The position numbers and the translations under genes are program-made. The notes under the pieces are model-generated. The model made no database searches. It had not been told where the DNA came from and worked only from the letters and a program-made list of their open reading frames with translations. Below, piece by piece: positions 4,920-60,685 of a stretch of DNA of 64,000 nucleotides. Numbering within the stretch: position 1 is the stretch's first letter; each line of letters opens with the position of its first letter. The DNA comes from an uncultured virus (IMG/VR IMGVR_UViG_3300028586_000757) (lineage: Duplodnaviria > Heunggongvirae > Uroviricota > Caudoviricetes), in the IMG/VR virus record IMGVR_UViG_3300028586_000757. One strand, 5' to 3'.

Positions 4920-5036
4920 GGAAGTCCTTTCTAGGCGATATGCGCCAAATGTTGTCCTGCTATCGTCTAGCTACGCGAGGCCGCACTAAGTCGACTTGGC
5001 TAGACTGTTGAGGAACACGACTTAAAAGGAGGGGCG

Positions 5037-5687
5037 ATGCCCATTACCGTAGTATCAATGCAGGAAGCACACAAGCCGCCACGGGCAAACCAACGCATGG
5101 TGAACACTACCTCCCATGGCAAGGCTACAGCCCATCTGTTTTCCCCGTTTATGCTGGGGCCCATCCCGCTCTACGGAGGGCAGCAGGCACTCAACATGGA
5201 AAACGCCTGGCAGTACGCGAAGGTGTACGCGAGCTTGCTCGAGGCCGATGGTACACCCGGGGCTAAATATCAAGCCTGGGCTCGCGCTGGATGGAGCGAC
5301 CCTAAGGCAAACCGCTACCCGCTCGGCAAAGGCAAGCGGCCACTGTACTCGCTTTGGGATGGAGAAAAGCTTTCATACGTAGAAGCGCGTAAGCGCATCT
5401 ACTTCCCTCTGTACCGAGATGCTGTACTACGCTCCGGCGGCTACGACTGGCTCAAGGAGTTGGCTGGCCAGTGCGAGGAGCTCTTGCTGGTCGACTTCGA
5501 CGGCTATCGCCATCGTGACCTGGGTATGACATTGGCAGACGTGCTCAATAGTGAGCGGCACCGGATGGGGCATGCCTTTGTCCTGGCCGCCATGCTCGAA
5601 CATGGACCGGCCGTCACTCCGGAGATGGTCGAGAAAGCAAGTGGCAGTGTTGTTGCCACCGTGCCGGTACAAACCAGTCTTTTCTAA
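5037..5687 (+). CDS. DUF6939 / NADAR-like protein
   Basis: TTS...FSPF..GP.P...ENAWQYAKV...LSYVEARKRIYFPLY motifs; AAGGAGG RBS; terminator at ~5699-5725. Confidence 0.6.
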   Translation: MPITVVSMQEAHKPPRANQRMVNTTSHGKATAHLFSPFMLGPIPLYGGQQALNMENAWQYAKVYASLLEADGTPGAKYQAWARAGWSDPKANRYPLGKGKRPLYSLWDGEKLSYVEARKRIYFPLYRDAVLRSGGYDWLKELAGQCEELLLVDFDGYRHRDLGMTLADVLNSERHRMGHAFVLAAMLEHGPAVTPEMVEKASGSVVATVPVQTSLF

Positions 5688-5786
5688 GCGAGCTTATTCG
5701 CGCCACCTTCGGGTGGCGCTTTTGTTTGCTGAAGCTGCGCCCATGAAAAAAGTCCCGGCAGGCCGGGACTCGAATGAGAAGCTGGG

Positions 5787-6071
5787 TTAGAGCATGTCGG
5801 GATACCCGCCCTGGATGTTGAGGGTCAGGTTCTTCCATTCGGCGACATCGCCGTCCTTGAGGTGTGAGTTTTGTTCCCAGTACGAAACCTCTACAGCATC
5901 ACCTGGCTGGGTCAGGTCAAAGGCTTGCGAGGCATCTTTCTTCATGTACTGGGCTCCTGGGATGTCCAGCAAATACCGCGCTGGGTCTCCTTTAAGCATG
6001 AAGGACACACTGGCTTTCACATGGTTGATGGAAATTCTTTCAATTTGACCAGAAATGCTTTTTTGCGGCAT
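5787..6071 (-). CDS. Small hypothetical protein resembling the C-terminal domain of 3186-4919
   Basis: LTQPGDAVEV versus LTQQGDAVEV; AAAGGA RBS. Confidence 0.65.
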   Translation of the reverse strand: MPQKSISGQIERISINHVKASVSFMLKGDPARYLLDIPGAQYMKKDASQAFDLTQPGDAVEVSYWEQNSHLKDGDVAEWKNLTLNIQGGYPDML

Positions 6072-6097
6072 GAATTGTCCTTTGGCGTAGCGCCCAG

Positions 6098-6472
6098 TTA
6101 TTTGGGATAGTTAAAGCCTTCGGAAACCACGGCTATCCCAATTTTTCCAAGGAAGGTGAGTCCGCCCTCGTCAGGCCAGAGCGTGTCGAGAAGTTCTTGT
6201 ATTTGGCTAGGCAGCATGTTCCAGGTTTCGGCCGGGGTAGCATGCACGATGGTGGCCAGGGACTCTTGGGCGTAGTCCTGAAGCTGGACTGCAAGCGCGC
6301 CCGCAAGGCATACCAGAGCCATGCGCGTGTTGTCCGTCAGTTGAACACCGGTCGCGACAACCAAGGCGTGGCATGCAAGCCGTGCTTCGTCATAGGCAGG
6401 GTCAGCTGCCGCAAGGGTCTGCGCACGTCGGCCAAACTCCGCCAATGCTTGCTGGAAATCTTGTTGAGGCAT
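6098..6472 (-). CDS. Hypothetical protein
   Basis: GGAG RBS and upstream CTATAC-N5-AGGTCAC motif support the start at 6472. Confidence 0.65.
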   Translation of the reverse strand: MPQQDFQQALAEFGRRAQTLAAADPAYDEARLACHALVVATGVQLTDNTRMALVCLAGALAVQLQDYAQESLATIVHATPAETWNMLPSQIQELLDTLWPDEGGLTFLGKIGIAVVSEGFNYPK

Positions 6473-6637
6473 ATTGTCTCCAAAAAAGTGACCTCTAGTG
6501 TATAGCGTGTGACCAGGCATGTGCCAAATACGTCGCCGGCTTGCCTGTTGACAGCTCGCCAATACTCTTAAAATGTCGAAGGTATTGCCACTTTAGAGTT
6601 GCTATAGGCCGAGTTCAATAATTCGCGAGGCCAGCCC

Positions 6638-7072
6638 ATGAATAACCAGAAAGTCATCGATGTCACGACCATGGACGTCTTTGGTTACAGAATCTCTCGA
6701 TTCAAGCTTCAACTTCTCAATGCCGAGCACTCGGTGTCAATGTCTGAAGAGGCACCAGGCGTCTTGGTGACCGGATTCAATAGCGACGTTCCACTGTCCA
6801 TCGCAGTTGACTCTAATGAGAGCCCTGTACGGCTGAAGTTCGTGCACTACCCGAGTGGCGCCGCGGCTACCACTTCCGATGTCAAGCTAGCCTTTGGTGC
6901 GGGTGTCGATGCCGATGAGTACTGGCGTCTCGTTGCCCAGATTCAGGCGGTCGCCCGAACCTTCATCCCGGAGCTGAACATCTATGGCCCAGAACGGCGG
7001 GAATCCGGTAACCGAGCACTGGACATCCCGGTGCTCAACATTACGCGAGCACCATCGTTGTCCGCTGTCTAA
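6638..7072 (+). CDS. Hypothetical protein
   Basis: 144-aa ORF followed by hairpin AAGCGCCTC-CGGA-GAGGCGCTTT. Confidence 0.65.
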   Translation: MNNQKVIDVTTMDVFGYRISRFKLQLLNAEHSVSMSEEAPGVLVTGFNSDVPLSIAVDSNESPVRLKFVHYPSGAAATTSDVKLAFGAGVDADEYWRLVAQIQAVARTFIPELNIYGPERRESGNRALDIPVLNITRAPSLSAV

Positions 7073-7136
7073 ACGAAAGCGCCTCCGGAGAGGCGCTTTG
7101 TCATTGAGCTATCCGCACACGCGGGCAGCGCTCTGT

Positions 7137-7475: not shown

Positions 7476-7616
7476 GATATGTGGAGGTCCGCAAAAGGTA
7501 GAAGTAAGTGTGCCGTATAGCGCCTTAGACTTTAGCCTTATTCCCAGTCTAAACGCCACATCGACGAGTTCTCGGTGCTATACCAAGTAGAACCAGAACC
7601 TATTTAGGAAAAATCA

Positions 7617-8054
7617 ATGAAACAACGTATTGTCAATTTGGGCATCGCTGCTGCTGCAGGTGCACTCGTCATCGCAGGCGGCCTGGTAGGCTGTTCGTCT
7701 CCTGAGGAGCAAGCTCGCGCAGAGGAACTGATGCGTAACCCAGAAATTGTCGTGGTCGGCACTTTCGATGGCTGCGAGGTGAAGTATGTCAACCGCTACC
7801 ATCGTGACAACAGCTTCTATCTTGCACGATGCGGCACCACCAGTGCGAGCACGCAGCAGTACGAGGAAACACAGGGTAAGTCTCGTGTGGCACGCACGCG
7901 ACTGACTATCACGCAAGAGTTGGCTCAACTCGACAAGCAGCGAGAAACGCTGAAAGTCGAACAAGCGGCCGCCGAGAAGCGCGAAGCAGCCATCGCCAAG
8001 CTATCGCCAGAAGAGCGCGCCGCGCTTGGGTTGGCCGATGACATCAAAAAGTAA
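7617..8054 (+). CDS. Putative lipoprotein with C-terminal coiled coil
   Basis: Signal peptide with LVGC lipobox; TAGGA RBS; terminator at ~8073-8102. Confidence 0.75.
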   Translation: MKQRIVNLGIAAAAGALVIAGGLVGCSSPEEQARAEELMRNPEIVVVGTFDGCEVKYVNRYHRDNSFYLARCGTTSASTQQYEETQGKSRVARTRLTITQELAQLDKQRETLKVEQAAAEKREAAIAKLSPEERAALGLADDIKK

Positions 8055-8188
8055 CCTCTCAAGTATCTTCTCAAAGACGCCCCGTGAAGGGCGTCTTTTT
8101 TTCACATGAATAGGGCACGGCTCAGCCCACTCCACAAAAGAAAAACCCCGCAAGAAGCGGGGTTTTGAATGTGAAACGTGAAACGGTG

Positions 8189-9466
8189 TTATGCCGGTTC
8201 GACTTGCTCGATGCCAGCCAGCTTCCAGCTGCCTTGCACGCCGACGTCTTTGACGAAATGGAACACTTCGTCGAACGACTCGGTCATGCCCGGGCCTTCT
8301 TGAACCATACCTTCGTAGCGTACCGAACCGATGTAGCGGCCTTCTTCCTTCGTCATGCCGACGATTTCCGAGTGCAGCGACAGCACTTCCGTTTGCGACG
8401 GAGTCGTGCGGTTGCGAATGGCGTCAGCCAGTCCGTTGTACACGTCGTCATCGCCGACACGGTTGCGCAGTTCGACCAGGTCGCCCTTGTTGTTCAGCAC
8501 TTGCAGTTCCTTGTAGAACTTCTGAGCAACTGCCGACAGGTCGTCAGCTTGACGGTCCAGCTCAGCTTGCTCGTTTTGAGCTGCCGATGGTTTTGCCAGG
8601 CTGGTTGCTGCCGGAGCCGAAGCTGCTGGGCCGTTGAACGACGACTTGAAGGCGTCACCAGCGGCTTTAGCAGCATTGCCGGTACGACGGGCATCTGCCT
8701 TGAAATCACCCTTCGTCATCACATAACGACGATAAGCGAAGTATGCGCCAGCGGCCAGCAGCACCAGAATCAGCAGCGAACCCAGACCGAAACCACCCGA
8801 CGACTGCTGCGGAGCTGCGGCGTAAGCCGGAGCGGCAGGAGCCGGTTGCTGGTAGACCGGAGCAGGAGCGGGAGCAGCCTGCTGGTACACCGGAGCCGGA
8901 GCTGGAGCCTGGTCAGCATAGGCAGGAGCCTGCTGCTGATACTGCGGAGCCGGTTGCTGGTACTGCGGAGCCGGTGCCGGAGCTTGCTGCGGATGGTTGT
9001 TGTTGCCAGAATTGGCCAGAGCATAGCCTGCCAGAGCACCTGCTGCCACGCCAGCTGCTGCCGGAGCAACCCAGCTATTACGCTTGGCTGGCGCCGGAGC
9101 CGCTTGGGAAGGCGACGCGGCGTAGCGGTTGCTCGGCGAGTAGCTTGGCGCCGGCGCGGCCGGCTGCGGCTGGCGGTAGCTCGGAGCATAGCTCGGTGCC
9201 GGTGCCTGACGCGGTTGGCTGCGAACGCTGTTCATGACCGTCGAGCGGGACATGCCCACCGACGAACCACTGCCCGCGCGCGACGAACTGGTCGAACGGG
9301 ACATACCCATCGACGAACCGCTGCCCAGTCGCGAGGAGCTTGCGCTCGGCTTGCTCGACGAGCTCGAAGAGCTGCCGATACGTGCTTGGGCTTCGCCCAC
9401 CATGTTCATGGTCATAGCGACCATGGTCAGGGCGACGATTGCGGTTTTGTGCATGGATTTGCGCAT
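8189..9466 (-). CDS. Tim44-like domain protein (signal peptide, Ser/Pro/Gln-rich linker, TM, C-terminal Tim44 domain)
   Basis: C-terminal SVRYEG...ESFDEVFHFVK...WKLAGIEQ; AAGGA RBS before ATG at 9466. Confidence 0.8.
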   Translation of the reverse strand: MRKSMHKTAIVALTMVAMTMNMVGEAQARIGSSSSSSSKPSASSSRLGSGSSMGMSRSTSSSRAGSGSSVGMSRSTVMNSVRSQPRQAPAPSYAPSYRQPQPAAPAPSYSPSNRYAASPSQAAPAPAKRNSWVAPAAAGVAAGALAGYALANSGNNNHPQQAPAPAPQYQQPAPQYQQQAPAYADQAPAPAPVYQQAAPAPAPVYQQPAPAAPAYAAAPQQSSGGFGLGSLLILVLLAAGAYFAYRRYVMTKGDFKADARRTGNAAKAAGDAFKSSFNGPAASAPAATSLAKPSAAQNEQAELDRQADDLSAVAQKFYKELQVLNNKGDLVELRNRVGDDDVYNGLADAIRNRTTPSQTEVLSLHSEIVGMTKEEGRYIGSVRYEGMVQEGPGMTESFDEVFHFVKDVGVQGSWKLAGIEQVEPA

Positions 9467-9675
9467 TGGATATTCCTTTCGAAAGGAGCTTTCGCTCAAA
9501 ATGGGTGATGCGTTGCCAAAAAGTCTAGTTAAAGGCTTTTGGCGGTACGCTTCGATAATTGACCTCTACCTCATATAGCAACTCATTTCTAAAAAGGCTG
9601 GCCTAAAGAAAAACCGCCTGCGCTTCCGGGTTGGAAGCTGCAGGCGGCAGAATGAGGCCAGGGCCTATGCGTTGA

Positions 9676-10980
9676 TTACTTGGTGAGCTTCAGCACTTCC
9701 GTGCCTTCGCCATTCCTCAGACTGACGCGGTGAGTGCCCGCAGCACTATGCAATCGCTTGGCCAGGGCGACACCTTCCGTCAAGAATTCTACGTTGACGG
9801 GAGCGCCACCATTTACGACGACGTCAAACGGAGCGTGATTGTTTTCGTCCTCTTCCTCGACATCGACAACGGCATGGCAACCAGTACCATCCAGTCGCGC
9901 ATCCCACAGTTCAGCCAAGGCCATTCCACGGGCAGTCTCCCGATTGGGAGCAATACCCAGCCACGCGCCCAGGTAAAATGCATGCTCGTGCTCTTTGACG
10001 TAAACTTCAGCCGAATACAGCTTGGGCAGGTCGATGTTCGACTCGGCGTCGGTTTCCGTCGGCGGAGACATTACAGGTTGCGCCAAAGCGATTGTTGGCG
10101 AAAACCGTTGTTCGGTGAAGAACACGTATTCATCACCATCTGGCGACTTGAAGCAACGATGTGCCTCGCACCAGGTCAGTGAGCGCAGCTTCGCAAGAGT
10201 CACAGAATCTTCCCACTCAAGACCGTCTTCAAGGCGCCCAAGCTCGAGCACGTTGTGATGGCAATCATCTTCGGTGTCGTAGTCTCCGGCAGGCTCCGCC
10301 AACATTCCCAACACCTCCGAACTGTAATACCGCAGAGAGAAGGGCACACCGTTGATGAGCACATTGGACACTGCCTCAAACGGAACGTTTTGGATGCTCA
10401 CTGAGGATGTCGCAGCTGCTTTTGGGGCAAGCGCACGCGTCCCGTAGATGATACCCAGGTCCAGGGTGTCCTTTTGGGTAGGATGGTGCTGCCCAGAGAA
10501 CTCCGGCGTAGCAGTTTCCTGCGATGACGGAGTGGTTGGCTTACCTCGGAGTTGAGGCTGACCACGCATCAGTGCTCCAAGGATGGCGCCCATTACCAGC
10601 TGGGGGTCTTCTTGCCACTCGTCAGACACCCAGTATGCGACTTCACGGCCCAGGGGGTCGCAAACGCGAACGTAGTCGACCAAGTCTCCTTCGGCACCAT
10701 AGCGGAGTTCAAAACCCGTATGAACGACCGCGGCGCATTCTGCACCATAGTCGTTTCCCTCGTTGTGCTCGATATGGCTCAGCTCGAAATCGGCCAGCTG
10801 TTCGTTTAGTGCTTCCGGACTTGTCGCTCGCGCCATCGAGTTCCAGTCTTTGAAACCAGAGAGAACTGCAATTGCGTCGAGTGCTTTACCATGTCCCAGC
10901 TCGATTCCGGACTTTGCCAGGAACTTCTCCAAGGCACGTGCCGATTTTTTGGCGGTCTTGGCGTTATTGATGTGCAGCAT
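9676..10980 (-). CDS. Protein with N-terminal PF20066 ('glyoxalase superfamily')-like small domain and unknown C-terminus
   Basis: AKKSARALEKFL...LGHGKALDAIAVLSGFKDWNSM; AAGGA RBS. Confidence 0.7.
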   Translation of the reverse strand: MLHINNAKTAKKSARALEKFLAKSGIELGHGKALDAIAVLSGFKDWNSMARATSPEALNEQLADFELSHIEHNEGNDYGAECAAVVHTGFELRYGAEGDLVDYVRVCDPLGREVAYWVSDEWQEDPQLVMGAILGALMRGQPQLRGKPTTPSSQETATPEFSGQHHPTQKDTLDLGIIYGTRALAPKAAATSSVSIQNVPFEAVSNVLINGVPFSLRYYSSEVLGMLAEPAGDYDTEDDCHHNVLELGRLEDGLEWEDSVTLAKLRSLTWCEAHRCFKSPDGDEYVFFTEQRFSPTIALAQPVMSPPTETDAESNIDLPKLYSAEVYVKEHEHAFYLGAWLGIAPNRETARGMALAELWDARLDGTGCHAVVDVEEEDENNHAPFDVVVNGGAPVNVEFLTEGVALAKRLHSAAGTHRVSLRNGEGTEVLKLTK

Positions 10981-11249
10981 AGCTGTTTTCCTTTTCGTGA
11001 ACATTGCGCAAGGCGCTGTATCACGTTCAATTCGTGTCGATTGCCTGCTTTACCGTAGCGCCTTGCGATGTACACAAGGTTCAGCTTGGGGTTGTCCTAC
11101 AAGGTTCTGCTTAATTCACCGTCTCCCACATGGGAGGCAGGCGGCTGGCGGCAGAGTGCGCCATGAACAGTCTAGTGACACGATATCGACAAGAAAAAGC
11201 CAAACTCCCTATACAGCAGGAGTACTCAACGACTTCTAAGGAAATGCAT

Positions 11250-16171: not shown

Positions 16172-16290
16172 TTCAAACAACCCCTGTTCCAAGCGCCTCC
16201 TCAGTGAGGCGCTTTTTTTATGGTTGACAGGTGTGACCTGTTGAACACCGGTGCCTATACAAGGTAGGTCAACTATTAGGAACTACCATC

Positions 16291-25491: not shown

Positions 25492-25577
25492 TTGAGTGTT
25501 TCCCGATTAGTTGTCCTGGTTAGTCTAGCAGCTCGGCCAAAGGCCACCTCGAGGCTAGGCCCGCTTTGCTAGTTTTC

Positions 25578-25595
25578 CTATACGAGCCAGGACAA
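25578..25595 (+). promoter_or_regulatory. Representative CTA(T/C/G)AC-N5-AGG(A/T)CAA upstream motif (~17 copies in window)
   Basis: CTATAC-GAGCC-AGGACAA ending 19 nt before ATG; other copies listed in findings. Confidence 0.7.
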
Positions 25596-27748: not shown

Positions 27749-27805
27749 CCGAGCGACTTATTACTGCGCTATACCGTCATAAGGACACTAACCAAGGAGC
27801 TCCGC

Positions 27806-28723: not shown

Positions 28724-28878
28724 GGTTCTTGAGTCGCCCGTGCCGACTTGCCCGCCCACAGCGGCGAAGCTGGACTTACAGCATGCATGAGGACCTTCGA
28801 GGCTTGGTTGACCATTGGTCGCAAGTGACTCGGTGTGTGGGCGCATCGCAGTACGGCGGCCTTATGGAGATTTCAACC

Positions 28879-30463: not shown

Positions 30464-30621
30464 GGTGTGTCCTTCGGTGGTTGTCCTAAACTGTGTAGAA
30501 ATTTCGAGGGGATACCTACGAAGTTGAGCGGCGGGCCTGCGAAGTCGTTCTTCGGCTGCTAAAGCTGAGGGCTATACAGTGTTTGTTCACCTGTATGGTG
30601 CCGTATGCACCCACGTCGTTA

Positions 30622-32719: not shown

Positions 32720-32896
32720 CACGCATTGATTGCAGAACGCCCCGAGACCCGGGGCGTTTTTCTTTGTGCGAGCAGAATTGAAGGGCGCTAACCCGGCCAT
32801 TGCGCGGCTGCGTGACCAGGCACGGCCTGGTTTGGTGGGGGTATTCGTGCGCATGGCTCTCCCTATACCGTGCAGGCCCACTAAAATAGAGATGCT

Positions 32897-34281: not shown

Positions 34282-34575
34282 AATATGTCCTAAGAGTTAA
34301 TCTAGCATGTATAGCACCTAAAGCACGGCCGAGGGGTGGAATGGTTGGGTTCGTTGGCCTTGATGCAGCTTCGCAGGTCCTGGCCGCATGAAGCGATGGT
34401 CAGGCACCGGAGGACATTTGTCGAACCACTCACAGGAGAGACTCTTTTGTCGCCCCGGGTATCGGCCCCGAGGATGCTAAAATATTCAGCGATTGTCGTA
34501 AAAGCGCAAAAACACTCTTTAGAGTATTAAAATACCTGTATTCTGGGTCAAAAGAGTGATTTTGCTCGGTTAGAA

Positions 34576-34604
34576 TTGACGGCTGGTTCACATTTTAATA
34601 TAAT
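34576..34604 (+). promoter_or_regulatory. Sigma70-type promoter of clpX
   Basis: TTGACG-17-TATAAT. Confidence 0.7.
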
Positions 34605-35908: not shown

Positions 35909-36040
35909 TCTCCCGCACAGGTGACGGTTGTAACGTCACGAACAAGCTAACGCCCCAGTCATGGGGCGTTTTGCTTTGCTGGTCGGGCTTGCGGCGGACG
36001 CACGACCTATACTGGTTAGGTCAACTATTTGGAGCAAGTC

Positions 36041-37179: not shown

Positions 37180-37256
37180 GGATAGCGCCGCGGAGGTTTA
37201 GACTACGCGTACTCCGATTCTTGCTACACCAGTCATCAATCTTCCAAGGGCTTCCC

Positions 37257-40613: not shown

Positions 40614-40711
40614 GGCAAAAGCGGCGGGGGGGGAATTTTCGTATAGCGCCCCTTTGTATCCCTGGATAGGTGCGCGGGGTTGGTGGGGAGGGCCGTCCAC
40701 CTACGGGCCAG

Positions 40712-41149: not shown

Positions 41150-41281
41150 GTGGCCCTCCTAGGCACGATTAAGGCGACTTCGTGTAGCGAGTGCCTTCGG
41201 GGCAACTGCTCCCGTCCGTAGGATTTCGCCCAAAGAAAAGCCCTTCCTGGTAAAGGAAGGGCTCGAATGATGCAGATGCGG

Positions 41282-42166: not shown

Positions 42167-42358
42167 AGTTTCTCAAAAAAGTTTGGCATGCTGTCGACCT
42201 GGGATAGGCGGCAACATGGTCCTGTTAATAAAAGTCCTAAGCTGTCTAGCTACCGTCGTAAGTAAACTCAGACAGCCTATCGCCCGGGGCCGGCGGCAGG
42301 GTGGTGTCAGCAACAAAAAAGCTCCTTCATCGAAGGAGCTTTAGTGAATAGGGCAAAG

Positions 42359-42766: not shown

Positions 42767-42881
42767 GATGTAATCCTTTTCTATTAAATGGGCCTGTCGC
42801 TTATAGCGAACTGCTCGAACTACGCCGCTCTAAGGCAGCACCGCATGAAAGAAGCCGACCAGGAGGTCGGCTTCAGAATGG

Positions 42882-44549: not shown

Positions 44550-44872
44550 GCCTCTCTCCTATGTAAATTGTCCTACCTGGTGTAGCGAAGCAGATGCGAA
44601 GGCTAGACAGGACGTATTTGTGCTCCCGGAAGCAGGCGTGCGTTGTCCATGAACCAACTGCTGAAAAAGTGCTGGGGCAGCGAGCAGCGGAAGCGGTGAG
44701 AACTAAGCTGGCGCCGATGGCTCCGGACTTGGCGCGCTGACCAAGGAACCCCGCAATTCGGTTTGCCAAGTAAGCACGCCGGTGGCGCGCTTGAAGCATT
44801 CGCGTCAGGGCCGGTTGGCGCACTAAAGACAAAGGCGCCCGAAGGCGCCCGTGCAGTTGAAACCAAAGAGGA

Positions 44873-45322
44873 TTACTCGTCCCCCTCGTCCTCATCGTCC
44901 GTCTTTTCAGGCCGTGCAAGCGTCATGCCTTCTTTGAGCAGCTCGGCGATGGTCAGGTCGTCGTAGTCGGTCTCTTCGTCCGGAGCCCAGTCAAGGCCGC
45001 TCGAGTAGATGAGCAGTCCTGACCACAAAGAGGAATCGTCCTCATCGACGCTGTACAGCACTGCCTCGAACTGACGTCCGTAGCCGAGCGCCAGCTGGAA
45101 GGACAGGATGAGCGGAAGCATGTCCTCGGCGTCCATCGCTTCGAGCGCCTGCAGGCCGACGCGACCGCCGGTGTCCGGGTTGCCGTTTTCGACGATGCGC
45201 ACGAAAACCGGACCGGCCTCTTCCGCAAAAATCGAAAGGTCATCGGCGAGCAGTTTGCGCAGAATAGCGACGCTGTGGCCGTCCTCGTCCCAGAGTTCGG
45301 GCAGGTTGGAACTTGTTGTCAT
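44873..45322 (-). CDS. Acidic hypothetical protein
   Basis: TAAGGAG RBS. Confidence 0.7.
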   Translation of the reverse strand: MTTSSNLPELWDEDGHSVAILRKLLADDLSIFAEEAGPVFVRIVENGNPDTGGRVGLQALEAMDAEDMLPLILSFQLALGYGRQFEAVLYSVDEDDSSLWSGLLIYSSGLDWAPDEETDYDDLTIAELLKEGMTLARPEKTDDEDEGDE

Positions 45323-45513
45323 GAACAACTCCTTATCTATGTGGGTGAACCCGGTCTAGCAAAGCGAGTCCCTTTAGCCCTGCGCGCCAGGCACGTTCGC
45401 CGCGCGTCCGGTTCGTCCGCAAGAAAACCAAGCACTGGCGCAACATGGCCGGTTGTCGCCTAAAAGAAACGCGCATGAAGGGCACGTTGGTCATCTGCTA
45501 GTCGGCTTGAAGA

Positions 45514-50744: not shown

Positions 50745-50831
50745 GCGGTTGTCCTGATAGATGAGGGAAGGCTTTCGCCTGACTTGAACAGTATAGGAGC
50801 TGCGCTTGGCACAGCCGCTAGAGTCATCTCG

Positions 50832-50869: not shown

Positions 50870-51679
50870 TTAGCAAAGCCAAGCGGTGACTTCGACATCT
50901 TCTGACACACTGCGGACGACTTCTCCGCGCAGGTCCTGCATTACCAGGTGAAACTTGTGGCGCGCGTGGTTGCGGCCGCCCGTGACACGCTCAACGAACG
51001 CGAATGGAGAGAGGGTCCGGAGTGGGCCCTCGACCCAGCGGCTGGGCTCAAAGAACGGCACAATCCCCGCAAATGCGCCTGCGGTGAGAAGCCGAGGCTC
51101 ATGCACAACCGTGCTTCCGCCGGCGAGAGATGCGAGCTTGACGTGTTTCAGGGCTGCGGAATCGACACGGTGCTTAACGAGCTTGCCGTCTTCGCGTCGG
51201 CCCAGCGTCAGCTTCCCCTTACGGTTGTCGTACACGAATGCGCCGCCTTTGGAGAAGGGCGAGCCATTGTCGTCCTGGTCGAAGACCAGGATTTCGCCAG
51301 GTTCGATACCTCGCAGGACCGCCGTGGGATTGGCAGCAAACAAGGTCTCGCTTAAGGCCGCGTACAGCGCCAGCACGTTGTGCGGGGCGCCGGCACGATG
51401 CGACTCACGGTCATACGACGGGGCTTTGTGGCCCAGGGGCTGGCCGACGAGCAGGGGAGCATCGAGAGCGATTTCGACATCCTTCAGGGCGTAGAACCGG
51501 TCTTCACGCATGAGTACGCGCTGGTACACATAGGCTTTGGCCTTCTCGAAATGCTGGGTGCACAGGAAAACCTGGCCCAATGCAGGAGCACGGGTGTCTT
51601 CCGGTACGTAGCATTGCTGAATGACCGACTCACTATTGAGCAAGTACAGTTCGCCAATGGCTGGGGTAGTTGCAGGCAT
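50870..51679 (-). CDS. Hypothetical protein
   Basis: AAGGA RBS; CTACAG-N5-AGGTCAA upstream; terminator at 50832-50860. Confidence 0.7.
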   Translation of the reverse strand: MPATTPAIGELYLLNSESVIQQCYVPEDTRAPALGQVFLCTQHFEKAKAYVYQRVLMREDRFYALKDVEIALDAPLLVGQPLGHKAPSYDRESHRAGAPHNVLALYAALSETLFAANPTAVLRGIEPGEILVFDQDDNGSPFSKGGAFVYDNRKGKLTLGRREDGKLVKHRVDSAALKHVKLASLAGGSTVVHEPRLLTAGAFAGIVPFFEPSRWVEGPLRTLSPFAFVERVTGGRNHARHKFHLVMQDLRGEVVRSVSEDVEVTAWLC

Positions 51680-51813
51680 GGTAATCCTTCCTATAAATTT
51701 GACCTATCTCCTGTAGCGAAGTTGTTCTCGCCGGCTACTCGTGCACAAAGAAAAACGCCTACTTCGGTAGGCGTTTTTCAGTGCAGCAGGCCGAGGGTTG
51801 GCCGGCAAATGCA

Positions 51814-54800: not shown

Positions 54801-57234
54801 CAGGGTTGGTCACTGTCACTGACTTGACCGCACGCTGGCCAATATCGACGCGGCCGAAGCCTAGGGAGGTGGGGGAGAGCGCCGGGCGGGCATCCTGTCC
54901 TTGGCCCGCGAGTGCAATATGGTATGTGCCAATGCTGCTCACGAGCGACCAGGTGCCGTCGAAGCCAGCTGCAGCCGTTGGCGTCATCTGGAGAGAGACA
55001 GTGCAGTTTGCGCCGGCGCCAAGCACCGTGCCGCAATTGTTCGACTGGCTAAAGACCGACTGTCCGCTGCTAATACTCATGCCCGTCAAGGCCACCGAAT
55101 TGCGGGTCGGATTGCTGAGCGTCACGTCAATTGGCTGCGACGGTTGGCGGATGTACGAGCTCGGGAACGCCACCGACGTGCGCGAAAGCGAAAGCCAGGA
55201 CGGTAGGCCCGTTCCGGTCAGCGGCACGTTCACCAAACCGGAGCCGTAAGCCGCTACGCTCAAGGCTCCGTTGGATGCGCCAGCAGAGCGGGGAACGAAC
55301 TTAACGGCCACCATGCAGCTGCTACCTGCTCCCAGGCTTGTGCCGCAGTTGTTGGCCTGCAGGTAGTCGCCTGCTGCGACGCTCACGCCGTCCAGAGGTA
55401 CCTCATCCGGGCCTGCGTTGGTGACAGTAACCGCTTGGTTGACGGTACTTTGGCCCACTTCAGTATCTTCAAACGTGAGGGATGTCGGCGAAGACGTCAA
55501 TTTGACGACTGCACCAGAGAGCGAGACAGTGGCGCTACCTGCATCCGAAAGGATTTGCAGGCTCGAGGAAATGACACCCAGACCGCTTGGGGTGTACCGC
55601 AGCATTAGAGAGCAGCTCTTGTTCGCGCCCAGGATAGCCGTGCAGTCACCGTAATCAATGGCCAGGCGAGAGTCATTGTTCGATACTGCCAGGCCGGTCA
55701 GCGGGATGTTTCCGCTGTTGACGATAGAGACCGAGCGGGACACGGTTCCAGATGGCCAAGGTAGGGCGCCGAGGCGAAGCGCGGTGGGAGAGACCAACAG
55801 CATGGCTTGCTGACCGACGCCTTCAAGCGCCAGGGGTGTAGAAGCACCTTCGCTGTCGACGCGCACTCGGCCGCTGCGTGCGCCCGCGGATTTGGGCGTA
55901 AAGGTGACTGTTACCATGCAAGATGCCTGAGGCGCAATGGTGTCGCCGCAGTCATTGGACTGCTGGTATACGTCGGAACTAACGTCGATGCCAAGGCTTT
56001 TTACCGTAATCGCTTTGGCGCTCGGATTGCTCAGGACGGCCGTCTTGGTGGCGCTTTGACCAACCATCACTTCAGCAAAGTTCAGCGTACTAGGCGAGAT
56101 AACTGGCACCGGCGCGTCACCAGCACCTTTGACGGTCCCTTGAAGCATCAGATGGCCGCGGACCTCTGCTTGTGCGCCCACTACCAGGTCATATGCTGGC
56201 GCTGTTCCCGCCTTAAGCGCGGTGAACCCGACATGCAGATTGCACGATGCGCCTATTTCCAGCGTCGAGGGACAATCACTGGAGACCGAAAAATCCGGGT
56301 TTGAAGCGAGCCCCGTCAGTTCCGCCGGCGCGGTACCCCGATTTGTCAGCACGGCAGTCTTGTTGGCATGAGCCCCGACATCGAGCGCGTCAAACTGCAA
56401 CGAGCTCGGCGAGAATGCCAAGACGGGTACGATAGCCGGGTCCTTGTTCACCTTGGCGTAAAAGGTAAGCGGGATTGCAGAGGTGCTCGGCAGCTCTGTT
56501 GCACCGACTCGCAAAGTCACGCTGTGTGTTTTCGGTACATACGAGGAGAAACTCGCAGTAACAGTGCAAGACGCTTTCTCGGGTAGTTGAGCAGGGCAGT
56601 CACTCGTAATGGAAAACGCGTCTTTAGATGTGAGGCCTGTCAGCGCGGCTGGCGCGTTGCCGGTGTTTTTTAGTGTTGCAGACGTGCTCGCTTGCGCGCC
56701 CGGGCCCAGCTCTCCCAGGTAGACGGGAGACTCACTCACCTGCAAGCGAGGCGCGATACCTGTGAACGGTTCTACGGTTGCCAGCTGCACCGCGACGGGT
56801 GCGTCGATTTCAGCTGCGCCAAGCGACAGGCTGTATCGAACGCCAGGCTGTACTGTCGTCGGGGTGACGGAGATAGTGCAGGAGCTAGAGGGTTTGAGCA
56901 GGGTGGGGCAATTGTGCTTTATTGCAAAATCGTCACTATCTCCGATGCTCGTCAAGGTGGCTGGGCGAAAGCCTGCATTTGTCAGCAACACATTCTGGCT
57001 TACCGGTGCTGCGTTCTCTTCTACCTCAAACTGCAAGATATCGGTAGAGACTAGCAGCTGCACTGGTTCGTCGTCGAGCTCCACATCACCATCACCCGCA
57101 CCCGGCGCCGTTTTGGTTGGCTTCAGGTCACGAAGGGGAATCCGATACTCCGTTGCCAGAACAGGCTGGATGGTCAGGATTCCCGCGAGAAGATGAGTGA
57201 TGAAAACGCTGAAGCGGTTATGGCGAAGAAACAT
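51814..57234 (-). CDS. Giant secreted adhesin: ~14 ASH/choice-of-anchor-D Ig repeats, two Big-like domains, C-terminal invasin/DUF1566-like lectin domain
   Basis: Signal peptide VLA; 14 counted L.F..V.VG...N.G...C...L..G.SC.V.V.F.P units; tip TW..S...C...WRLGTEAEL..L. Confidence 0.9.
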   Translation of the reverse strand: MFLRHNRFSVFITHLLAGILTIQPVLATEYRIPLRDLKPTKTAPGAGDGDVELDDEPVQLLVSTDILQFEVEENAAPVSQNVLLTNAGFRPATLTSIGDSDDFAIKHNCPTLLKPSSSCTISVTPTTVQPGVRYSLSLGAAEIDAPVAVQLATVEPFTGIAPRLQVSESPVYLGELGPGAQASTSATLKNTGNAPAALTGLTSKDAFSITSDCPAQLPEKASCTVTASFSSYVPKTHSVTLRVGATELPSTSAIPLTFYAKVNKDPAIVPVLAFSPSSLQFDALDVGAHANKTAVLTNRGTAPAELTGLASNPDFSVSSDCPSTLEIGASCNLHVGFTALKAGTAPAYDLVVGAQAEVRGHLMLQGTVKGAGDAPVPVISPSTLNFAEVMVGQSATKTAVLSNPSAKAITVKSLGIDVSSDVYQQSNDCGDTIAPQASCMVTVTFTPKSAGARSGRVRVDSEGASTPLALEGVGQQAMLLVSPTALRLGALPWPSGTVSRSVSIVNSGNIPLTGLAVSNNDSRLAIDYGDCTAILGANKSCSLMLRYTPSGLGVISSSLQILSDAGSATVSLSGAVVKLTSSPTSLTFEDTEVGQSTVNQAVTVTNAGPDEVPLDGVSVAAGDYLQANNCGTSLGAGSSCMVAVKFVPRSAGASNGALSVAAYGSGLVNVPLTGTGLPSWLSLSRTSVAFPSSYIRQPSQPIDVTLSNPTRNSVALTGMSISSGQSVFSQSNNCGTVLGAGANCTVSLQMTPTAAAGFDGTWSLVSSIGTYHIALAGQGQDARPALSPTSLGFGRVDIGQRAVKSVTVTNPGAIAMGLKSITTSPNVFQQENDCGTSIPARGSCIVSVGFIPTGTADSSGELRVTPAAGDSTAISLTGTGQKVALSLSTASIQFGNIVFPDSTPVRNVTLSNTGNVLVTGLSFQSTGTALAVDSSDCGNKLSSMQSCTVSLQYTPDSTGPFAATLQITSDNAGSPTVDVTGRAISVAASPSALQYPSTWLNESAPDQSVTITNRGTDELPLDGIDVVSGRSAFNQSNNCGTTLAAGASCTATVRFTPTTAGTLHGELTAVGYGSTLVRVALDGVGAAPKLTLSPTSVRFAPTNVGQSAPTVDVVLSNPTNKQAEITGASIVSGETEFSQSNDCGNSLAAGASCTVTLKMTPKSTNGSAGTWAVTSSLGDYFISMSGQGTKPVADIAPDPTPDTGDGSPGTVTPVATPDGFTHYAINFLATEYGQVSAVRNVKFSNKGTGPLTILGLSLLDGPDDFRMTNNCGSVLQPGEYCTLSLQFAPSQSGPRTGGVALLSDSGKHYFDLAGKGTAASGVLTAVTSTSFGTVEPGTSAQRSFTFKNTGDASVRNLVTSVSGAGLSLLSNACGTNGAPVTVTPGGTCAITVKYVPASPGTLIDAVLESSGTLVNGPVRLALTGSAPAPSFTFDAAPSADYGIVPVNADTARTFVLRNTAPIADTVKAAPTVSGAGFTYAGGTCAAGTSLSANAACTIIVNVRPSTDGALSGVVSATSTKGASVSRTLQASALSKAPTLGAWSVPAKTYGSAPFALTPPKSDSPGTFVYSSDNPAVATISGDTVTITGRGTATFTAVQQASGLYGSSTATALFTVTKGAPTIVFNIPAQSYQYNPLRIAPVALSASSNSTGALTYSTTLSAAKLTVAGSTATINATGAFAVTVTQAESADFAAGTATATLTVTAPGGALVVGGRAWTPKPSGSTTWDISNSGCLSMTTGGVSGWRLGTEAELHALALVDASVRPNWPYMWASGGTSSARTGVAISSNGTLVMSGTTTSVFQTCTRE

Positions 57235-58258: not shown

Positions 58259-58285
58259 GTTTTTCCTTATGAGTAATCGGTTGGG

Positions 58286-58672
58286 TCAGATGGCCAGCAT
58301 GTCTTGTGCTTCAGTCGACATTTCGCGCAACTGTTCCAGGATTTCCAGAACTTTGCTACCGGCGACCATCACCTCGAAGCGCAGCAGGTTTTCCAGGCCG
58401 TCGCGGTCCGCCAGGTCGGTCCAGGTCAGGTTGTAGGTGCGGCAGCCTTGGCGAACGTTTGCAAAACCACGCTTGGCGCCTTCTTCGTCCACATTACCCA
58501 GAGTCAATTGAATGCGTTCCGGCGTAGCGCTGACAACGATTTCTCGCCACAGGTGGTCGCGCACCAGACTGCTCATGCCAGAACGCGAGTGGCGCTGCTG
58601 TTCTTCGCGTACGCGGGCAACTTCTTCGTCGCTTTCGAGGCAAACGATTTTCTTGATGGTGATGCTGTTCAT
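58286..58672 (-). CDS. Hypothetical protein
   Basis: AAGGA RBS; CTACAC-N6-AGGACAA upstream. Confidence 0.7.
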   Translation of the reverse strand: MNSITIKKIVCLESDEEVARVREEQQRHSRSGMSSLVRDHLWREIVVSATPERIQLTLGNVDEEGAKRGFANVRQGCRTYNLTWTDLADRDGLENLLRFEVMVAGSKVLEILEQLREMSTEAQDMLAI

Positions 58673-58804
58673 GGCTTGTCCTTGTTGAAATTGTCCTATC
58701 AAGGTGTAGCCACGGCCCCCTGCAGCGATTTCGCGGCCGCAAGAAAAACGCCCACCTAGAGGTGAGCGCTGTGAAGAAGAGGTAGGTGGCCAGTCGCCCG
58801 GAGC

Positions 58805-59344
58805 TTAGTCGCGGTCGTACACGACTTCCAGGCCATCGAAGTTCTTGGTGAGAACCGTGCCTTCTCGGTCGAAGAGGATAGGGAAAGTACCCGGCACGTC
58901 GGGGATAGTGACCTCCGCCAGAACCACATCGTCGTGCACCGCGTTAATCTTGGTGACCTTGGCGGTGAAGCTTCCCAGGCCATACATGACGCATAGCTTC
59001 AGGGGCTCTTCCACGTCCAGGCGGTCGGGGTACGAGAAGCCTGGCTGCTCGCCATTGGGGCCGAAGAGTCGAATCATCTCTTCTTCGGTCTCTACTCGGG
59101 AGTTGCCCGGGCCGCAGAAATTGTGCGACAGAAGGTCTTCTGCCGTCGTTCCCATTTGAGAGCTGGTGCCGGTCTTCTCGATGCGTGCCAGTCGTGCCGG
59201 CAGTTCATCAAGCGCCTTATAGCCGTAGCGCTCCACGATGTAACGCTTGAGCTCCGGCAGGGTCAGCAATGGAGACAGCGGGCCGTCCGAAACAGTCGTC
59301 CAGTCCATGTAGCGGTCACCAAACTTGGCGATGATGTGTCCCAT
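58805..59344 (-). CDS. Phage-type hypothetical protein
   Basis: AAAGGA RBS; W.TVSDGP...RL.RIEKTGTSS...N..GP. Confidence 0.7.
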   Translation of the reverse strand: MGHIIAKFGDRYMDWTTVSDGPLSPLLTLPELKRYIVERYGYKALDELPARLARIEKTGTSSQMGTTAEDLLSHNFCGPGNSRVETEEEMIRLFGPNGEQPGFSYPDRLDVEEPLKLCVMYGLGSFTAKVTKINAVHDDVVLAEVTIPDVPGTFPILFDREGTVLTKNFDGLEVVYDRD

Positions 59345-59594
59345 TTTGTTCCTTTCTTTCAGTAGATGTCCTGAATCCTATAGCCAAGCGGCCATCGGGC
59401 TGGCAGTGCCCGGCGATGGTGAGCAAAATTGTGGACCAGAAAACGCATTCTCGGACGAACGTGAGAACAGTTGTGAACGGGATGCCTATTGACTCACCGT
59501 TAGCCCAGGCTATAGCAAGCTTGGCAACGAGTATACGGGTGCGGTAGCATGAGCAACTACCGGAAAATGCCGGTGTTCGGGACGTACTTTTCAC

Positions 59595-60626
59595 ATGGCC
59601 AAACTTGACACCAAAGACCTGGGGTTTAATCAGCTGCCCCATTACAGCACGCATGCTATCGAATTCTTTACCGAGCAGGCAAAGACGCTTTCAAGCGCGG
59701 GCATACCGGTCGATTGCGAACTCTTGATTTGCGACTTACTCAAGGCATCCATCAAGTTTCTTCTGCCGGACAACGGCTATCTGTTTGCTGACCATGACTT
59801 CAAGCCGTCCATGTTCGAGCTCTTGCGTCTGCCGTATCCGGTGTGCGCGCTAGAGTACACCGCAACGCTCGACCTCTATGCGCAAGGGTCAGGCCTAGCC
59901 CACGCCGCTAAACGTATTGCACTTTGCTTTGACCCGAAGCAGTTGCCTCAGGCGCAAGCCGCGCAGCTCTCTCGTTTGTGTGGGCCAGATTTCCTGGGCA
60001 AATTACCAGAACGCTCTCTGGCAATTATGGCAGTCTACGAGGCGAACGGTTCCTGGGGCGCGGCAATTGGCCTAGTGGTCCTAGACCTGGACGAGAACAA
60101 GCCTGTCCGGTTACGAGATACGTCAACTGACGCCCTTAGTGACTTGGCTAATCGTGTTGGAATGAAAATTCACTCTAAGCCATCGGACCACGGGCTTCCA
60201 GTGACGTTCTGGGCATTTCTGAGCCGGACCCGCTTGATTGGCCAGAGCGATAAGCGGGCTCAGGAAGCGCTGTATATTGACTCCATTGACGAGGTGCGCG
60301 CTTGTTACGAATTTCTCGCGGCTATCAACTGCTCCAACGTTGGCACGCAGGATGTGCCGGCGCCGTCGATGCTGAACGACAAGCGTAAGAAGAAAGGGAA
60401 GACGCTCTTTTATCCATACAAAGTACTCGACCTGTCGCCGGTGTCAGAGTCGGGCTCGAAAGGGAGTAGTGGGTCGCATGCTTCACCTCGTGCGCACCTT
60501 CGTCGAGGACACATCCGCCAGCTGGGTGAGCGCGCGGGGAATAAAGTCCTCTGGATTAACGCCACCATGGTCAATGCGAAAACGGATGGCCCGCCGGTGT
60601 CGACTGTCTACAAGGTGCGTACCTGA
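59595..60626 (+). CDS. Hypothetical protein with C-terminal SPRAHLRRGH motif
   Basis: 343-aa ORF; H.RRGH.R...W...V motif seen in mobile-element proteins. Confidence 0.75.
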   Translation: MAKLDTKDLGFNQLPHYSTHAIEFFTEQAKTLSSAGIPVDCELLICDLLKASIKFLLPDNGYLFADHDFKPSMFELLRLPYPVCALEYTATLDLYAQGSGLAHAAKRIALCFDPKQLPQAQAAQLSRLCGPDFLGKLPERSLAIMAVYEANGSWGAAIGLVVLDLDENKPVRLRDTSTDALSDLANRVGMKIHSKPSDHGLPVTFWAFLSRTRLIGQSDKRAQEALYIDSIDEVRACYEFLAAINCSNVGTQDVPAPSMLNDKRKKKGKTLFYPYKVLDLSPVSESGSKGSSGSHASPRAHLRRGHIRQLGERAGNKVLWINATMVNAKTDGPPVSTVYKVRT

Positions 60627-60685
60627 GAGCAGGGTCTGCTGTATTCGTTTTCTACACGAATGAGGACAACCTCTCAGGAGCCAAC

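Follow-up and report, generated by a model that had tools for sequence, protein, structure and literature searches.

A promoter-like motif with a -10-type core and no -35 partner is shared by a family of giant plasmids

Linuron-degrading Variovorax strains carry the tRNA-bearing megaplasmids pSRS16-1, pWDL1-1, pPBL-H6-1 and pPBL-E5-1, which have F-like transfer genes, a complete set of tRNAs, RepB-ParAB and a type I-E CRISPR (clustered regularly interspaced short palindromic repeats) system (Öztürk et al., 2020; PMC7313664). That paper uses the term 'promoter' 0 times, and the motif described below is unmentioned there. Most of the content of giant plasmids from soil and water bacteria lacks annotation, and the control of their hundreds of cargo genes is unexplained. 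Among chromosomal systems, promoters read by the sigma factor sigmaS have the extended -10 consensus KCTAYRCTTAA (CTATACT) and are said to lack a -35 consensus (PMC5650638). Here we describe a short motif that recurs upstream of genes in a 64,000-nucleotide (nt) stretch of DNA recorded as an uncultured virus of the Caudoviricetes (IMG/VR record IMGVR_UViG_3300028586_000757), hereafter the window. Judged from sequence, this motif is likely a promoter, and it recurs on the Variovorax megaplasmids and their relatives. We found no description of it in the literature searched, subscription journals being outside the coverage.

The pattern searched was CTA(T/C/G)AC-N5-AGG(A/T)CAA (CTABAC-N5-AGGWCAA), of which the CTABAC part is referred to as block A and the AGGWCAA part as block B. 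The window contains 8 exact copies, compared to 0.01 expected from 100 dinucleotide-preserving shuffles, and 21 matches with up to two mismatches (shuffle mean 4.0, largest 10). A weight-matrix scan for the two blocks with spacers of 3-8 returned 24-32 matches, depending on the threshold, versus 3-4 in a control consisting of the window sequence read backwards, and the N5 spacer was the commonest (16-17 matches). When variants are included, about 23 copies are oriented with a gene. A preliminary description of this DNA, made without database searches, had listed 19 copies upstream of unrelated genes. All 19 are present at the positions and on the strands that it gave, the N6 and N7 copies being recovered by the weight matrix; copies that it overlooked are marked in Table 1.

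The position of the copies relative to genes is tightly constrained. In the window, the CAA of block B lies a median of 18 nt before the start codon (interquartile range 16-19). The earlier view of the motif as promoter-like, gene-oriented and separate from the Shine-Dalgarno sequence (SD) is supported. An open reading frame (ORF) of at least 50 codons starts within 60 nt downstream of 21 of the 22 sites scoring at least 15, and an SD-like word is present at 17 of these 21. Since 53% of random positions are also followed by such an ORF, its presence says little by itself, and the real signal is the tight distance. Both of the back-to-back arrangements previously noted at about 4.96 and 25.5 kb were seen as divergent pairs with block-A starts only 29 and 49 nt apart, respectively, so that there is no room for a -35 element between them. 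If full sites and sites with block A only (defined below) are taken together, roughly 30 such predicted promoters would account for most transcription units of the window.

The motif is not restricted to the window. The helicase encoded in the window is 54% identical to the product of a gene on the ~800-kb plasmids of Variovorax sp. SRS16, PBL-E5 and PBL-H6 (40% for WDL1), and its DNA methyltransferase is 72% identical to the counterpart on Variovorax megaplasmids. The same motif occurs on these plasmids. On plasmid 2 of Variovorax SRS16 (801,406 bp, G+C content (GC) 62.5%; hereafter the SRS16 plasmid) we found 66 sites with at most one mismatch versus 5 in the backwards control, and all 24 exact copies lie just 5' of an SD and start codon; WDL1 plasmid 2 has 23 exact copies versus 0 in the control. 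The window differs from the Variovorax megaplasmids in gene content: 9 of its 95 ORFs have a tblastn relative on the SRS16 plasmid, Rfam and tRNA scans of the 64 kb gave no Rfam match and no tRNA, and no tra or rep/par genes were found inside these 64 kb.

A first scan of a genome collection with a single helicase query gave no match, and a scan with a helicase alignment identified a metagenome-assembled genome (MAG) of Agitococcus sp., whose helicase is 58% identical. This MAG has 71 sites with at most one mismatch versus 16 in the control, and the motif density is 1.0-7.1 per 10 kb on its contigs of GC 47-52% (0.5 on one tra-bearing contig) versus 0-0.5 on those of GC 44-45%. Its plasmid-like contigs have 112 ORFs in common with the SRS16 plasmid, including transfer genes and genes for two helicases, a RIIA-like protein, RNA ligase/kinase, nicotinamide adenine dinucleotide (NAD) salvage, ThyA, RecJ, SecA, FtsH and Crp-like regulators. 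A scan of metagenomes with a methyltransferase alignment yielded 80 loci (944 kb) with 45 matrix matches versus 12 in the control; 44 of the 45 fall in 9 loci whose methyltransferase is at least 68% identical. The GC of these 9 loci is 56-64%, and the contigs that carry them include ones of 271 kb, 440 kb, 572 kb, 667 kb and 1.46 Mb. The hallmark genes of the family are the helicase (54-58% identical) and the methyltransferase (68-72%), and the motif is present in all members tested. At the orthologous methyltransferase promoter, the motif was found in 11 of 12 family elements, with flanks that cannot be aligned. Methyltransferase homologues of at most 63% identity have no motif; at two of their loci (L270 and L271) a TATAAT box and a -35 hexamer of the TTGAC type stand in its place. 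The motif-bearing elements span a GC of 48-64% and have few genes in common. These results show that the motif, first described from a single element, is family-wide: a widespread megaplasmid clade has conserved it while its genes turned over and its GC drifted. In the window, the SRS16 plasmid and the MAG alike, the median CAA-to-start distance is 17-20 nt, and on the SRS16 plasmid 124 of 146 sites lie 10-30 nt from a start codon.

Outside the family, the motif occurs at chance level. Five element-free genomes (Curvibacter, Rhodoferax, Aalborgicola, Marinobacter and Pseudomonas; 23.6 Mb) contain 1 exact copy versus 2 in the control. Among 401 genomes of the Burkholderiales, the order around Curvibacter, 107 have at least one copy and none more than 3, and the control columns are alike; one of the 401 is an unpublished genome (G211) with 2 matches, on which no claim rests. 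Within the MAG, the plasmid-like contigs (546 kb) hold 32 full and 51 block-A-only sites in promoter position, compared to 0 and 1, respectively, in the 480 kb of chromosomal contigs sampled. Block A overall gave 67 matches on the MAG chromosome versus 87 in the reversed control. The comparison of replicon and chromosome thus agrees with the earlier proposal that the motif is private to the element, and the motif is absent from host chromosomes and unrelated genomes.

Alignment of the exact copies and iteration of the matrix gave the extended consensus T-n-g-C-T-A-y-A-C-(n5)-A-G-G-a-C-A-A-c-t. With the C of CTA numbered 0 and the A of block B numbered +11, positions C0, T1, A2, A4, C5, A11, G12 and G13 are invariant or nearly so. 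T is found at -3 in 65-87% of sites and G at -1 in about 60%, the letters of the N5 spacer are unconserved, and G is scarce (0-14%) from +14 to +23, up to the SD. The lack of a consistent -35 element, remarked on previously, was borne out in all three elements: in the SRS16 plasmid and the MAG, all columns upstream of -8 stay within about 0.2-0.3 bits, and no k-mer is common to their upstream regions. Spacers of N5, N6 and N7 were counted 72, 20 and 6 times on the SRS16 plasmid (plus 2 of N4), 40, 10 and 2 times in the MAG, and 11, 2 and 2 times in the window, with 0-2 in the controls; the order is N5 > N6 > N7, and shorter spacers are almost absent. Bacterial RNA polymerase sets its start site 6-10 bp from the -10 element (bioRxiv 10.1101/239426), and the spacer distribution therefore matches the initiation geometry of a bacterial multi-subunit polymerase. 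A start near AGG would fit both this geometry and the A found at +11 where block B is lacking.

The preliminary description had also noted that many genes are preceded by the CTANAC half only. We defined block-A-only sites as those with a good block A and a block B score below 8, and counted 15 in the window, 144 on the SRS16 plasmid, 237 on the MAG contigs and 102 on the reversed SRS16 plasmid. Among the sites with a qualifying start within 130 nt, which serve as denominators here, those lying 30-40 nt before an SD-preceded start are 8 of 11 in the window, a peak that bears out the earlier remark, and 35 of 82 on the SRS16 plasmid. On the MAG contigs they are 29 of 102, with 28 more at 40-50 nt, and the reversed SRS16 plasmid has 4 of 15 with a flat spread. 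Block-A-only sites retain A at +11 (50-71%) and G at +12 (40-51%). Because these sites keep both their position before starts and the A and G at +11 and +12, block A is probably the essential element. The motif, originally drawn as one bipartite unit, is thus better described as a block A (TnGCTAyAC) that behaves as the core, with AGGWCAA as a frequent, optional add-on.

These properties of block B bear on an improbable alternative, in which block B or the whole motif is an operator for a family-encoded DNA-binding protein that switches the cargo genes off or on together, much as the backbones of large plasmids are governed by global regulators, and the polymerase uses block A alone. That block B is dispensable for position, the block-A-only sites being equally far from starts, fits a regulatory add-on; block B also overlaps the inferred start site, where repressors act, and helix-turn-helix (HTH), Crp-like, KfrA-like and H-NS-like proteins are conserved between the SRS16 plasmid and the MAG contigs. 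However, the site is asymmetric and has no dyad or direct repeat, unlike the operators of dimeric HTH or Crp proteins, and no candidate binder was identified. The weak persistence of the A and G of block B at block-A-only promoters points to a start-site preference rather than to an all-or-none operator, and the one-sided spacer distribution follows from start-site geometry.

The surroundings of the motif speak to a second alternative, which we consider very improbable, namely that the motif acts at the RNA level. The mRNAs of the element would then have it in common as a 5' leader or processing site that singles them out for translation, protection or cleavage, and the true promoters would lie further upstream. 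Its fixed, short distance to the SD and start codon and the G-poor, unstructured-looking leader that follows it (0-14% G from +14 to +23) would suit such a role, and the family has RNA ligase/kinase and RNase II/R-like genes as well as tRNA arrays. A co-oriented hairpin with a T-run was found within 70 nt upstream at 4/17, 16/123 and 20/114 sites in the three elements, compared to 3-5% of random segments. Such terminators, 20-60 nt upstream of many copies, and the divergent copies 29-49 nt apart leave no room for another promoter. Further arguments against an RNA-level role are that there is no conserved upstream -35/-10, that no Rfam family matches, and that the two blocks are not complementary to each other.

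In the explanation that we favor, the window belongs to a family of giant, conjugative, tRNA-carrying megaplasmids, and the motif would serve this family as its standard promoter. The core would be the -10-like block T-n-G-C-T-A-y-A-C without a -35 partner, and transcription would most likely start 6-8 nt downstream of block A, at the A-G-G (A11-G13) of block B (AGGaCAAc). The resulting leaders would be very short (about 20-30 nt) and G-poor, running straight into the SD and start codon. Block B would serve as a preferred start site and early-transcribed sequence, optional and present at roughly half of the promoters. The motif would drive most transcription units of the elements, and the multi-subunit RNA polymerase of the host would be directed to it by a family-borne specificity factor that is not a recognizable sigma70-family protein. 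A reader that travels with the family is suggested because the motif appears to drive most units of the elements and is absent from host chromosomes; we infer such a reader by exclusion. That a family-associated specificity factor of an unrecognized type reads the motif is, in our estimate, an even chance, the possibility that the motif is no promoter being included in this estimate.

The principal competitor is that sigmaS, or another sigma70-family holoenzyme of the host, reads block A as a -35-independent -10 element. The preliminary description had pointed out the resemblance to a sigmaS -10 that lacks the final T, and this proved correct. In the window, the SRS16 plasmid and the MAG, the letters at sigmaS positions -14 to -8 are G in about 60% of sites, C in 99-100%, T in 98-100%, A in 98-100%, T or C in 79-95%, A in 98-100% and C in 82-89%, and thus fit KCTAYRC. 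T is uncommon at the would-be -7 (0-22% of sites), also among block-A-only sites when that column is left out of the scoring, and no TAA follows. Under this alternative, which we consider unlikely, the elements would have converged on or inherited a sigmaS-type dialect, their genes would be expressed in stationary phase or under stress, and AGGaCAAc would be a separate start-site or leader feature. It is favored by the match of block A to the sigmaS extended -10 KCTAYRC, C-13 included, in a promoter class said to have no -35 consensus (PMC5650638). Likewise, the family has no conserved sigma or polymerase gene, RpoS is encoded by the MAG host (474 bits versus a cut-off of 394), and the spacer distribution suits start-site selection by a bacterial holoenzyme. 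The rarity of T at -7, a part of both the sigmaS and the sigma70 consensus, argues against it. This T is essential for -10 recognition. The TTAA of the sigmaS consensus is absent as well, the conserved T three bases before CTA lies outside that consensus, and block A is unenriched on the 480 kb of MAG chromosome, with its single promoter-positioned site, where some sigmaS promoters would be expected.

Other known promoter classes differ from the motif in defining features. A canonical sigma70 promoter does not apply, there being no TTGACA-like -35 about 17 bp 5' of a TATAAT-like -10 at the motif. The sigma54 -24/-12 consensus is TGGCAC-N5-TTGC, with GG and GC doublets 10 bp apart. The motif likewise has two blocks one helical turn apart, but when aligned by eye the letters do not match, and the SD would lie upstream of the predicted start. 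For a T7-like promoter, a continuous conserved stretch of ~20 bp is missing, the N5 spacer being unconserved, and PF00940 (T7-like polymerase) has no match on the SRS16 plasmid or in the MAG; the control genomes also gave none, as expected. A multi-subunit or YonO-like RNA polymerase encoded by the elements finds no support, as element ORFs lack a D-x-D-G-D loop: in a search of all six-frame ORFs, the sole true hit, NADFDGD, is the host rpoC on chromosomal contig C25. The methyltransferase was set aside as a reader, as homologues of the same architecture (46-63% identity) occur in motif-free loci. An 874-amino-acid (aa) protein of the SRS16 plasmid was ruled out as a polymerase, PHROGs identifying it as RIIA-like.

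Regulons of extracytoplasmic function (ECF) sigma factors are marked by an autoregulated sigma gene and by a conserved -35 (GGAAC-like) and -10. A divergent ECF-type sigma of 210 aa is encoded on a plasmid-like contig of the MAG (C29:18693-19325, minus strand; locus L215), with 42.4 bits to TIGR02937 (cut-off 42.9) and an E value of 5e-5 to Sigma70_r2, and its gene is directly preceded by CTATAC-N5-AGGCCCA. Like the expected autoregulated gene it has the motif upstream, but there is no conserved -35, and it has 2 relatives only among 5.8 billion proteins. This sigma cannot be the reader of the family because it lacks a homologue in the SRS16 plasmid, in the window or on plasmids. We also built a sigma hidden Markov model from nine sigma-region ORFs of the MAG, the C29 sigma and its one metagenome relative, and ran it unfiltered (--max) over six-frame ORFs of at least 80 aa. 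Across the SRS16 plasmid, the window and the fetched MAG contigs it found one protein only, the C29 sigma. On the SRS16 plasmid, Sigma70_r2 gave no match, and TIGR02937 and Sigma70_r4_2 gave only HTH-level partial matches in transposase-sized or small HTH frames.

Several observations weigh against the favored explanation. The earlier suggestion of an element-encoded sigma factor, activator or RNA polymerase did not lead to a protein that could be named, as neither the window nor the 801-kb Variovorax plasmid has a detectable Sigma70_r2, ECF-type, T7-type or DxDGD polymerase signature. Comparison by hhalign of 103 conserved protein groups with the sigma alignment gave a best probability of 5.7%, for an HTH only, and Pfam, NCBIfam and PHROGs scans of the conserved proteins revealed no sigma-like or polymerase-binding family. 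The C29 sigma is without a homologue in the SRS16 plasmid, the window or 72,556 plasmids. From -14 to -8, block A agrees with the sigmaS -10 at 7 of 7 positions, and the MAG host has RpoS. Finally, plasmid and chromosome were told apart in the MAG by binning, GC and gene content rather than from closed replicons, and the chromosome comparison covers 480 kb of the MAG chromosome and no Variovorax chromosome.

Two bolder readings may be placed beside the favored explanation. The first, possible but doubtful, is that TnGCTAyAC-N5-AGG, without a -35 and without T at -7, constitutes an orthogonal promoter class read by a factor unlike those of the sigma70, sigma54, T7-like and double-psi-barrel polymerase systems. 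Such a class would run most genes of a widespread giant-plasmid clade whose contigs reach 1.46 Mb and whose hosts belong to two or more proteobacterial classes, and its reader would be a new sigma-like or RNA-polymerase-reprogramming protein among the conserved unknown ORFs of the family. The second, an add-on of low probability, is that the AGG/ACAA start block was selected for NAD-capped initiation, alongside the conserved NAD-salvage genes of the family. The start consensus prone to NAD capping is HRRASWW (H-3 R-2 R-1 A+1 S+2 W+3 W+4), with the start ~7 bp after the -10 (bioRxiv 10.1101/239426). Each letter of AGGACAA agrees with HRRASWW; A occupies the would-be +1 in only 48-59% of sites, and most of the others have T or C.

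Table 1. Motif copies, block-A-only sites and one contrasting promoter in the window (N4 to N7, length of the spacer; remarks in the last column mark copies overlooked by the preliminary description)
Feature	Position	Strand	Context
Full motif, N5, exact	2005..2022	-	ATG 21 nt downstream; overlooked previously
Full motif, N6	4952..4970	-	Heads operon 3663-4919 / 3186-3629 (Gre-like, weak) / 2262-3023; back-to-back with 5000-5017
Motif, N5, block B degenerate (AGGAACA)	5000..5017	+	Upstream of DUF6939 gene 5037-5687
Full motif, N5 (AGGTCAC)	6488..6505	-	
Variant, N4, weak block B	6602..6618	+	Upstream of gene 6638-7072; overlooked previously
Motif, N5, block B degenerate (AGAACCA)	7578..7595	+	Upstream of gene 7617-8054
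N7 variant	9559..9578	-	No start codon within ~50 nt
Strong block A (CCTATAC), weak block B	11209..11227	+	ATG ~40 nt downstream; overlooked previously
Full motif, exact	16255..16272	+	Upstream of alpha/beta hydrolase gene 16291-17103; terminator-like T-run 5' of motif
Full motif, exact	25511..25528	-	Divergent partner of 25578-25595, 49 nt apart
Full motif, exact	25578..25595	+	Upstream of gene 25615-26322
N7 variant (AGGACAC)	27769..27788	+	Upstream of gene 27806-28138
Full motif, exact	30481..30498	-	Upstream of gene 30185-30463
Motif, N5 (AGGCCCA)	32863..32880	+	Upstream of gene 32897-33142
Motif, N5, weak block B (AGATTAA)	34297..34314	-	Upstream of gene 34006-34281; overlooked previously
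Full motif, exact	36007..36024	+	Upstream of gene 36029/36041-36682; terminator 5' of motif
Motif, N5 (AGGACTT)	42232..42249	-	Upstream of DUF808 gene 41282-42166
Motif, N5 (CTATAA...AGGCCCA)	42789..42806	-	Upstream of gene 42359-42766
Full motif, exact	44568..44585	-	Upstream of DNA methyltransferase gene 43269-44549
Motif, N5 (CTACAG)	51699..51716	-	Upstream of gene 50870-51679; terminator 5' of motif
Full motif, N6	58691..58709	-	Upstream of gene ~58286-58672; terminator 5' of motif
Motif, N5 (CTATAG...AGGACAT)	59366..59383	-	Upstream of gene 58805-59344
Full motif, exact	60652..60669	+	Upstream of gene 60686-61036
Weak copy (CTATAC...AAGTCAG), under matrix threshold	50779..50796	-	ATG 35 nt downstream; terminator 5' of copy; overlooked previously
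Block A only (cCTAGAC)	3053..3058	-	28 nt before ATG of gene 2262-3023
Block A only (GCTATAC)	7515..7520	-	~39 nt before an ATG of DUF805 gene
Block A only (tTGCTACAC)	37224..37229	+	27 nt before in-frame ATG of DUF6891 gene
Block A only (GCTATAC)	40641..40646	-	27 nt before an ATG of gene 40188-40700
Block A only (tCGCTACAC)	41182..41187	-	32 nt before GTG of gene 40712-41149
Block A only (tTGCTAGAC)	45354..45359	-	30 nt before ATG of gene 44873-45328
Contrast: canonical TTGACG-N17-TATAAT promoter	34576..34604 (approximate)	+	~112 nt before clpX-like gene 34688-35908

Ordinary promoters occur on the same DNA. The preliminary description had assigned sigma70 promoters to the clpX and abiE genes and to two PF20066 genes. 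This holds for the clpX-like gene, whose TTGACG-N17-TATAAT is a near-consensus sigma70 promoter followed by a leader of ~112 nt, and for the PF20066/DUF6874 gene (TTGACA-N17-TACCAT); the AbiEii gene has a weak match only (CTGGCA-N18-TACAAT), and no sigma70 promoter was found in the scan for the 442-aa PF20066 gene. Since canonical sigma70 promoters are present on the same DNA, the motif would represent a second, distinct promoter class.

The window has a GC of 53-61%, and most of its ORFs have no Pfam or PHROGs match. The DinG-like helicase gene is truncated at the left edge, and the methyltransferase is an N6/N4 DNA methyltransferase with an Mrr_N domain. Other recognizable products are AbiEii, the ClpX-like ATPase, an Rv2179c-type exonuclease fused to HAD, and giant proteins with Ig/ASH repeats. 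No near-identical DNA was found among plasmid or phage records. Scans of viral contigs with the ClpX-like protein returned generic ClpX loci only (79 of 80 without a motif copy, one with a single copy), those with the exonuclease-HAD, 514-aa and 418-aa proteins found no relatives, and a scan with the methyltransferase alignment found homologues of at most 52% identity only. A sequence search of the PDB with four large unknown window proteins and the 874-aa protein of the SRS16 plasmid gave nothing below E 0.1, and the ESM Atlas provided no usable lead for two window proteins.

Several features of the window are recorded here in their own right. The copy at 9559-9578 faces the overlapping long ORFs 8165-9508 (plus strand) and 8189-9499 (minus strand), and its orientation favors the minus-strand ORF or an untranslated RNA. 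The product of 3186-3629 (minus strand) has a weak match to the GreA/GreB C-terminus (E 5e-4, below cut-off) and shares an operon with the gene at 3663-4919 (minus strand) for a 418-aa protein of unknown family. The Gre-like product may act as a secondary-channel factor of RNA polymerase, and it has no homologue on the SRS16 plasmid or the MAG contigs. An Ig/ASH/HYDIN-like repeat giant of 1806 aa is encoded at 51814-57234 (minus strand), with smaller relatives at 61130-61951 (minus strand) and 30583-31755 (plus strand). Its homologues of 3,253 and 3,309 aa on the SRS16 plasmid and of ~800 aa on the MAG contigs indicate a recurrent surface-protein theme of the plasmid family. The proteins encoded at 9676-11004 (minus strand) and 28729-29418 (plus strand) have an N-terminal module corresponding to the first ~50-60 positions of PF20066 (Glyoxalase_8), followed by varied C-termini. 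Several paralogues of this module occur per element, on the SRS16 plasmid and in the MAG too, and at least one uses a canonical sigma70 promoter. An Atlas cluster pairs the module with an MvaI/BcnI nuclease, and it may be a defence-type modular family.

Other members of the family and its surroundings show further recurrent features. A ClpX-like copy of 67% identity adjoins the methyltransferase in the 440-kb metagenome contig (L244:8000-9277, minus strand). The methyltransferase homologues of 46-63% identity, which have the same Mrr_N + N6_N4_Mtase layout, lie in motif-free contigs (L270, L271 and L323-L328 among them); some of these contigs are classed as viral and some have textbook sigma70 promoters, and together they form a natural outgroup to the motif-bearing clade. 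The genes common to the SRS16 plasmid and the MAG contigs resemble phage and housekeeping genes; besides those named above they encode an RNA ligase with polynucleotide kinase/phosphatase, NAD synthase, nicotinate phosphoribosyltransferase (NAPRTase), NrtR, NUDIX, NADAR, a macro domain and an RNase II/R-like protein. The SRS16 plasmid has 49 tRNA genes, most of them in one array at 63-75 kb. The motif was not found upstream of the tRNA arrays of the SRS16 plasmid and the MAG. A conserved noncoding stretch of ~50 nt lies just 5' of a tRNA-Glu/Arg/Asp cluster in both, at ~629,090-629,140 of the SRS16 plasmid (L112/L113) and at ~24,880-24,930 of MAG contig C18. It contains a small hairpin, GTCCAnCAGGAC, followed by CGGAGA, is distinct from the motif, and might serve the tRNA cluster as a promoter or as a small RNA.

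A signal of 9-18 nt that host chromosomes lack, that appears to mark most transcription units and that survives a GC range of 48-64% and near-complete gene turnover is useful in several ways. It is a simple sequence marker with which contigs of the family can be spotted in metagenomes and parted from host bins. In cultured Variovorax strains, it offers a direct handle on the reader by pull-down, reporter assays and holoenzyme proteomics, and it is a candidate for an orthogonal promoter-reader pair for engineering. If a host sigma reads the motif instead, it would show how megaplasmids tie the expression of their cargo to host physiology.

Among known promoters, those of sigmaS are alike in that block A, (G/T)CTA(T/C)AC, equals their positions -14 to -8 including C-13, and in having no conserved -35. 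The motif differs from them in that the -7 T and the TAA are unconserved, in the conserved T three bases 5' of CTA and the AGGaCAAc at the presumed start site, and in being limited to one plasmid family and unenriched on the host chromosome. The -10 box of Caulobacter RpoD is GCTANAWC (PMC8144410), and its first six letters, GCTANA, are as in block A. Positions 7-8 are W C in Caulobacter versus C n in the motif; moreover, Caulobacter promoters have a TTGACGS -35, and the known hosts of the motif are beta- and gammaproteobacteria. The late promoters of phage T4 (TATAAATA, with no -35) are read via the phage-encoded specificity factor gp55. Phage middle and late promoters of this kind resemble the motif as short -10-region elements without a -35 that stand before many unrelated genes of one mobile element, with short leaders and with host-type promoters on the same DNA. 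The sequence is a different one, however, and the carriers are conjugative megaplasmids rather than phages; neither a gp55-like nor any other sigma-like gene came up in the PHROGs, Pfam and NCBIfam scans or in profile comparison. The KorA and KorB operators of IncP-1 plasmids are palindromes bound by known repressors beside ordinary sigma70 promoters. They share with the motif the arrangement of one short sequence at many plasmid promoters in a single control circuit, whereas the motif is asymmetric and appears to be the promoter itself. The motif would add to the known promoters specific to a mobile element, and it is of more than routine interest because no recognizable reader gene accompanies it.

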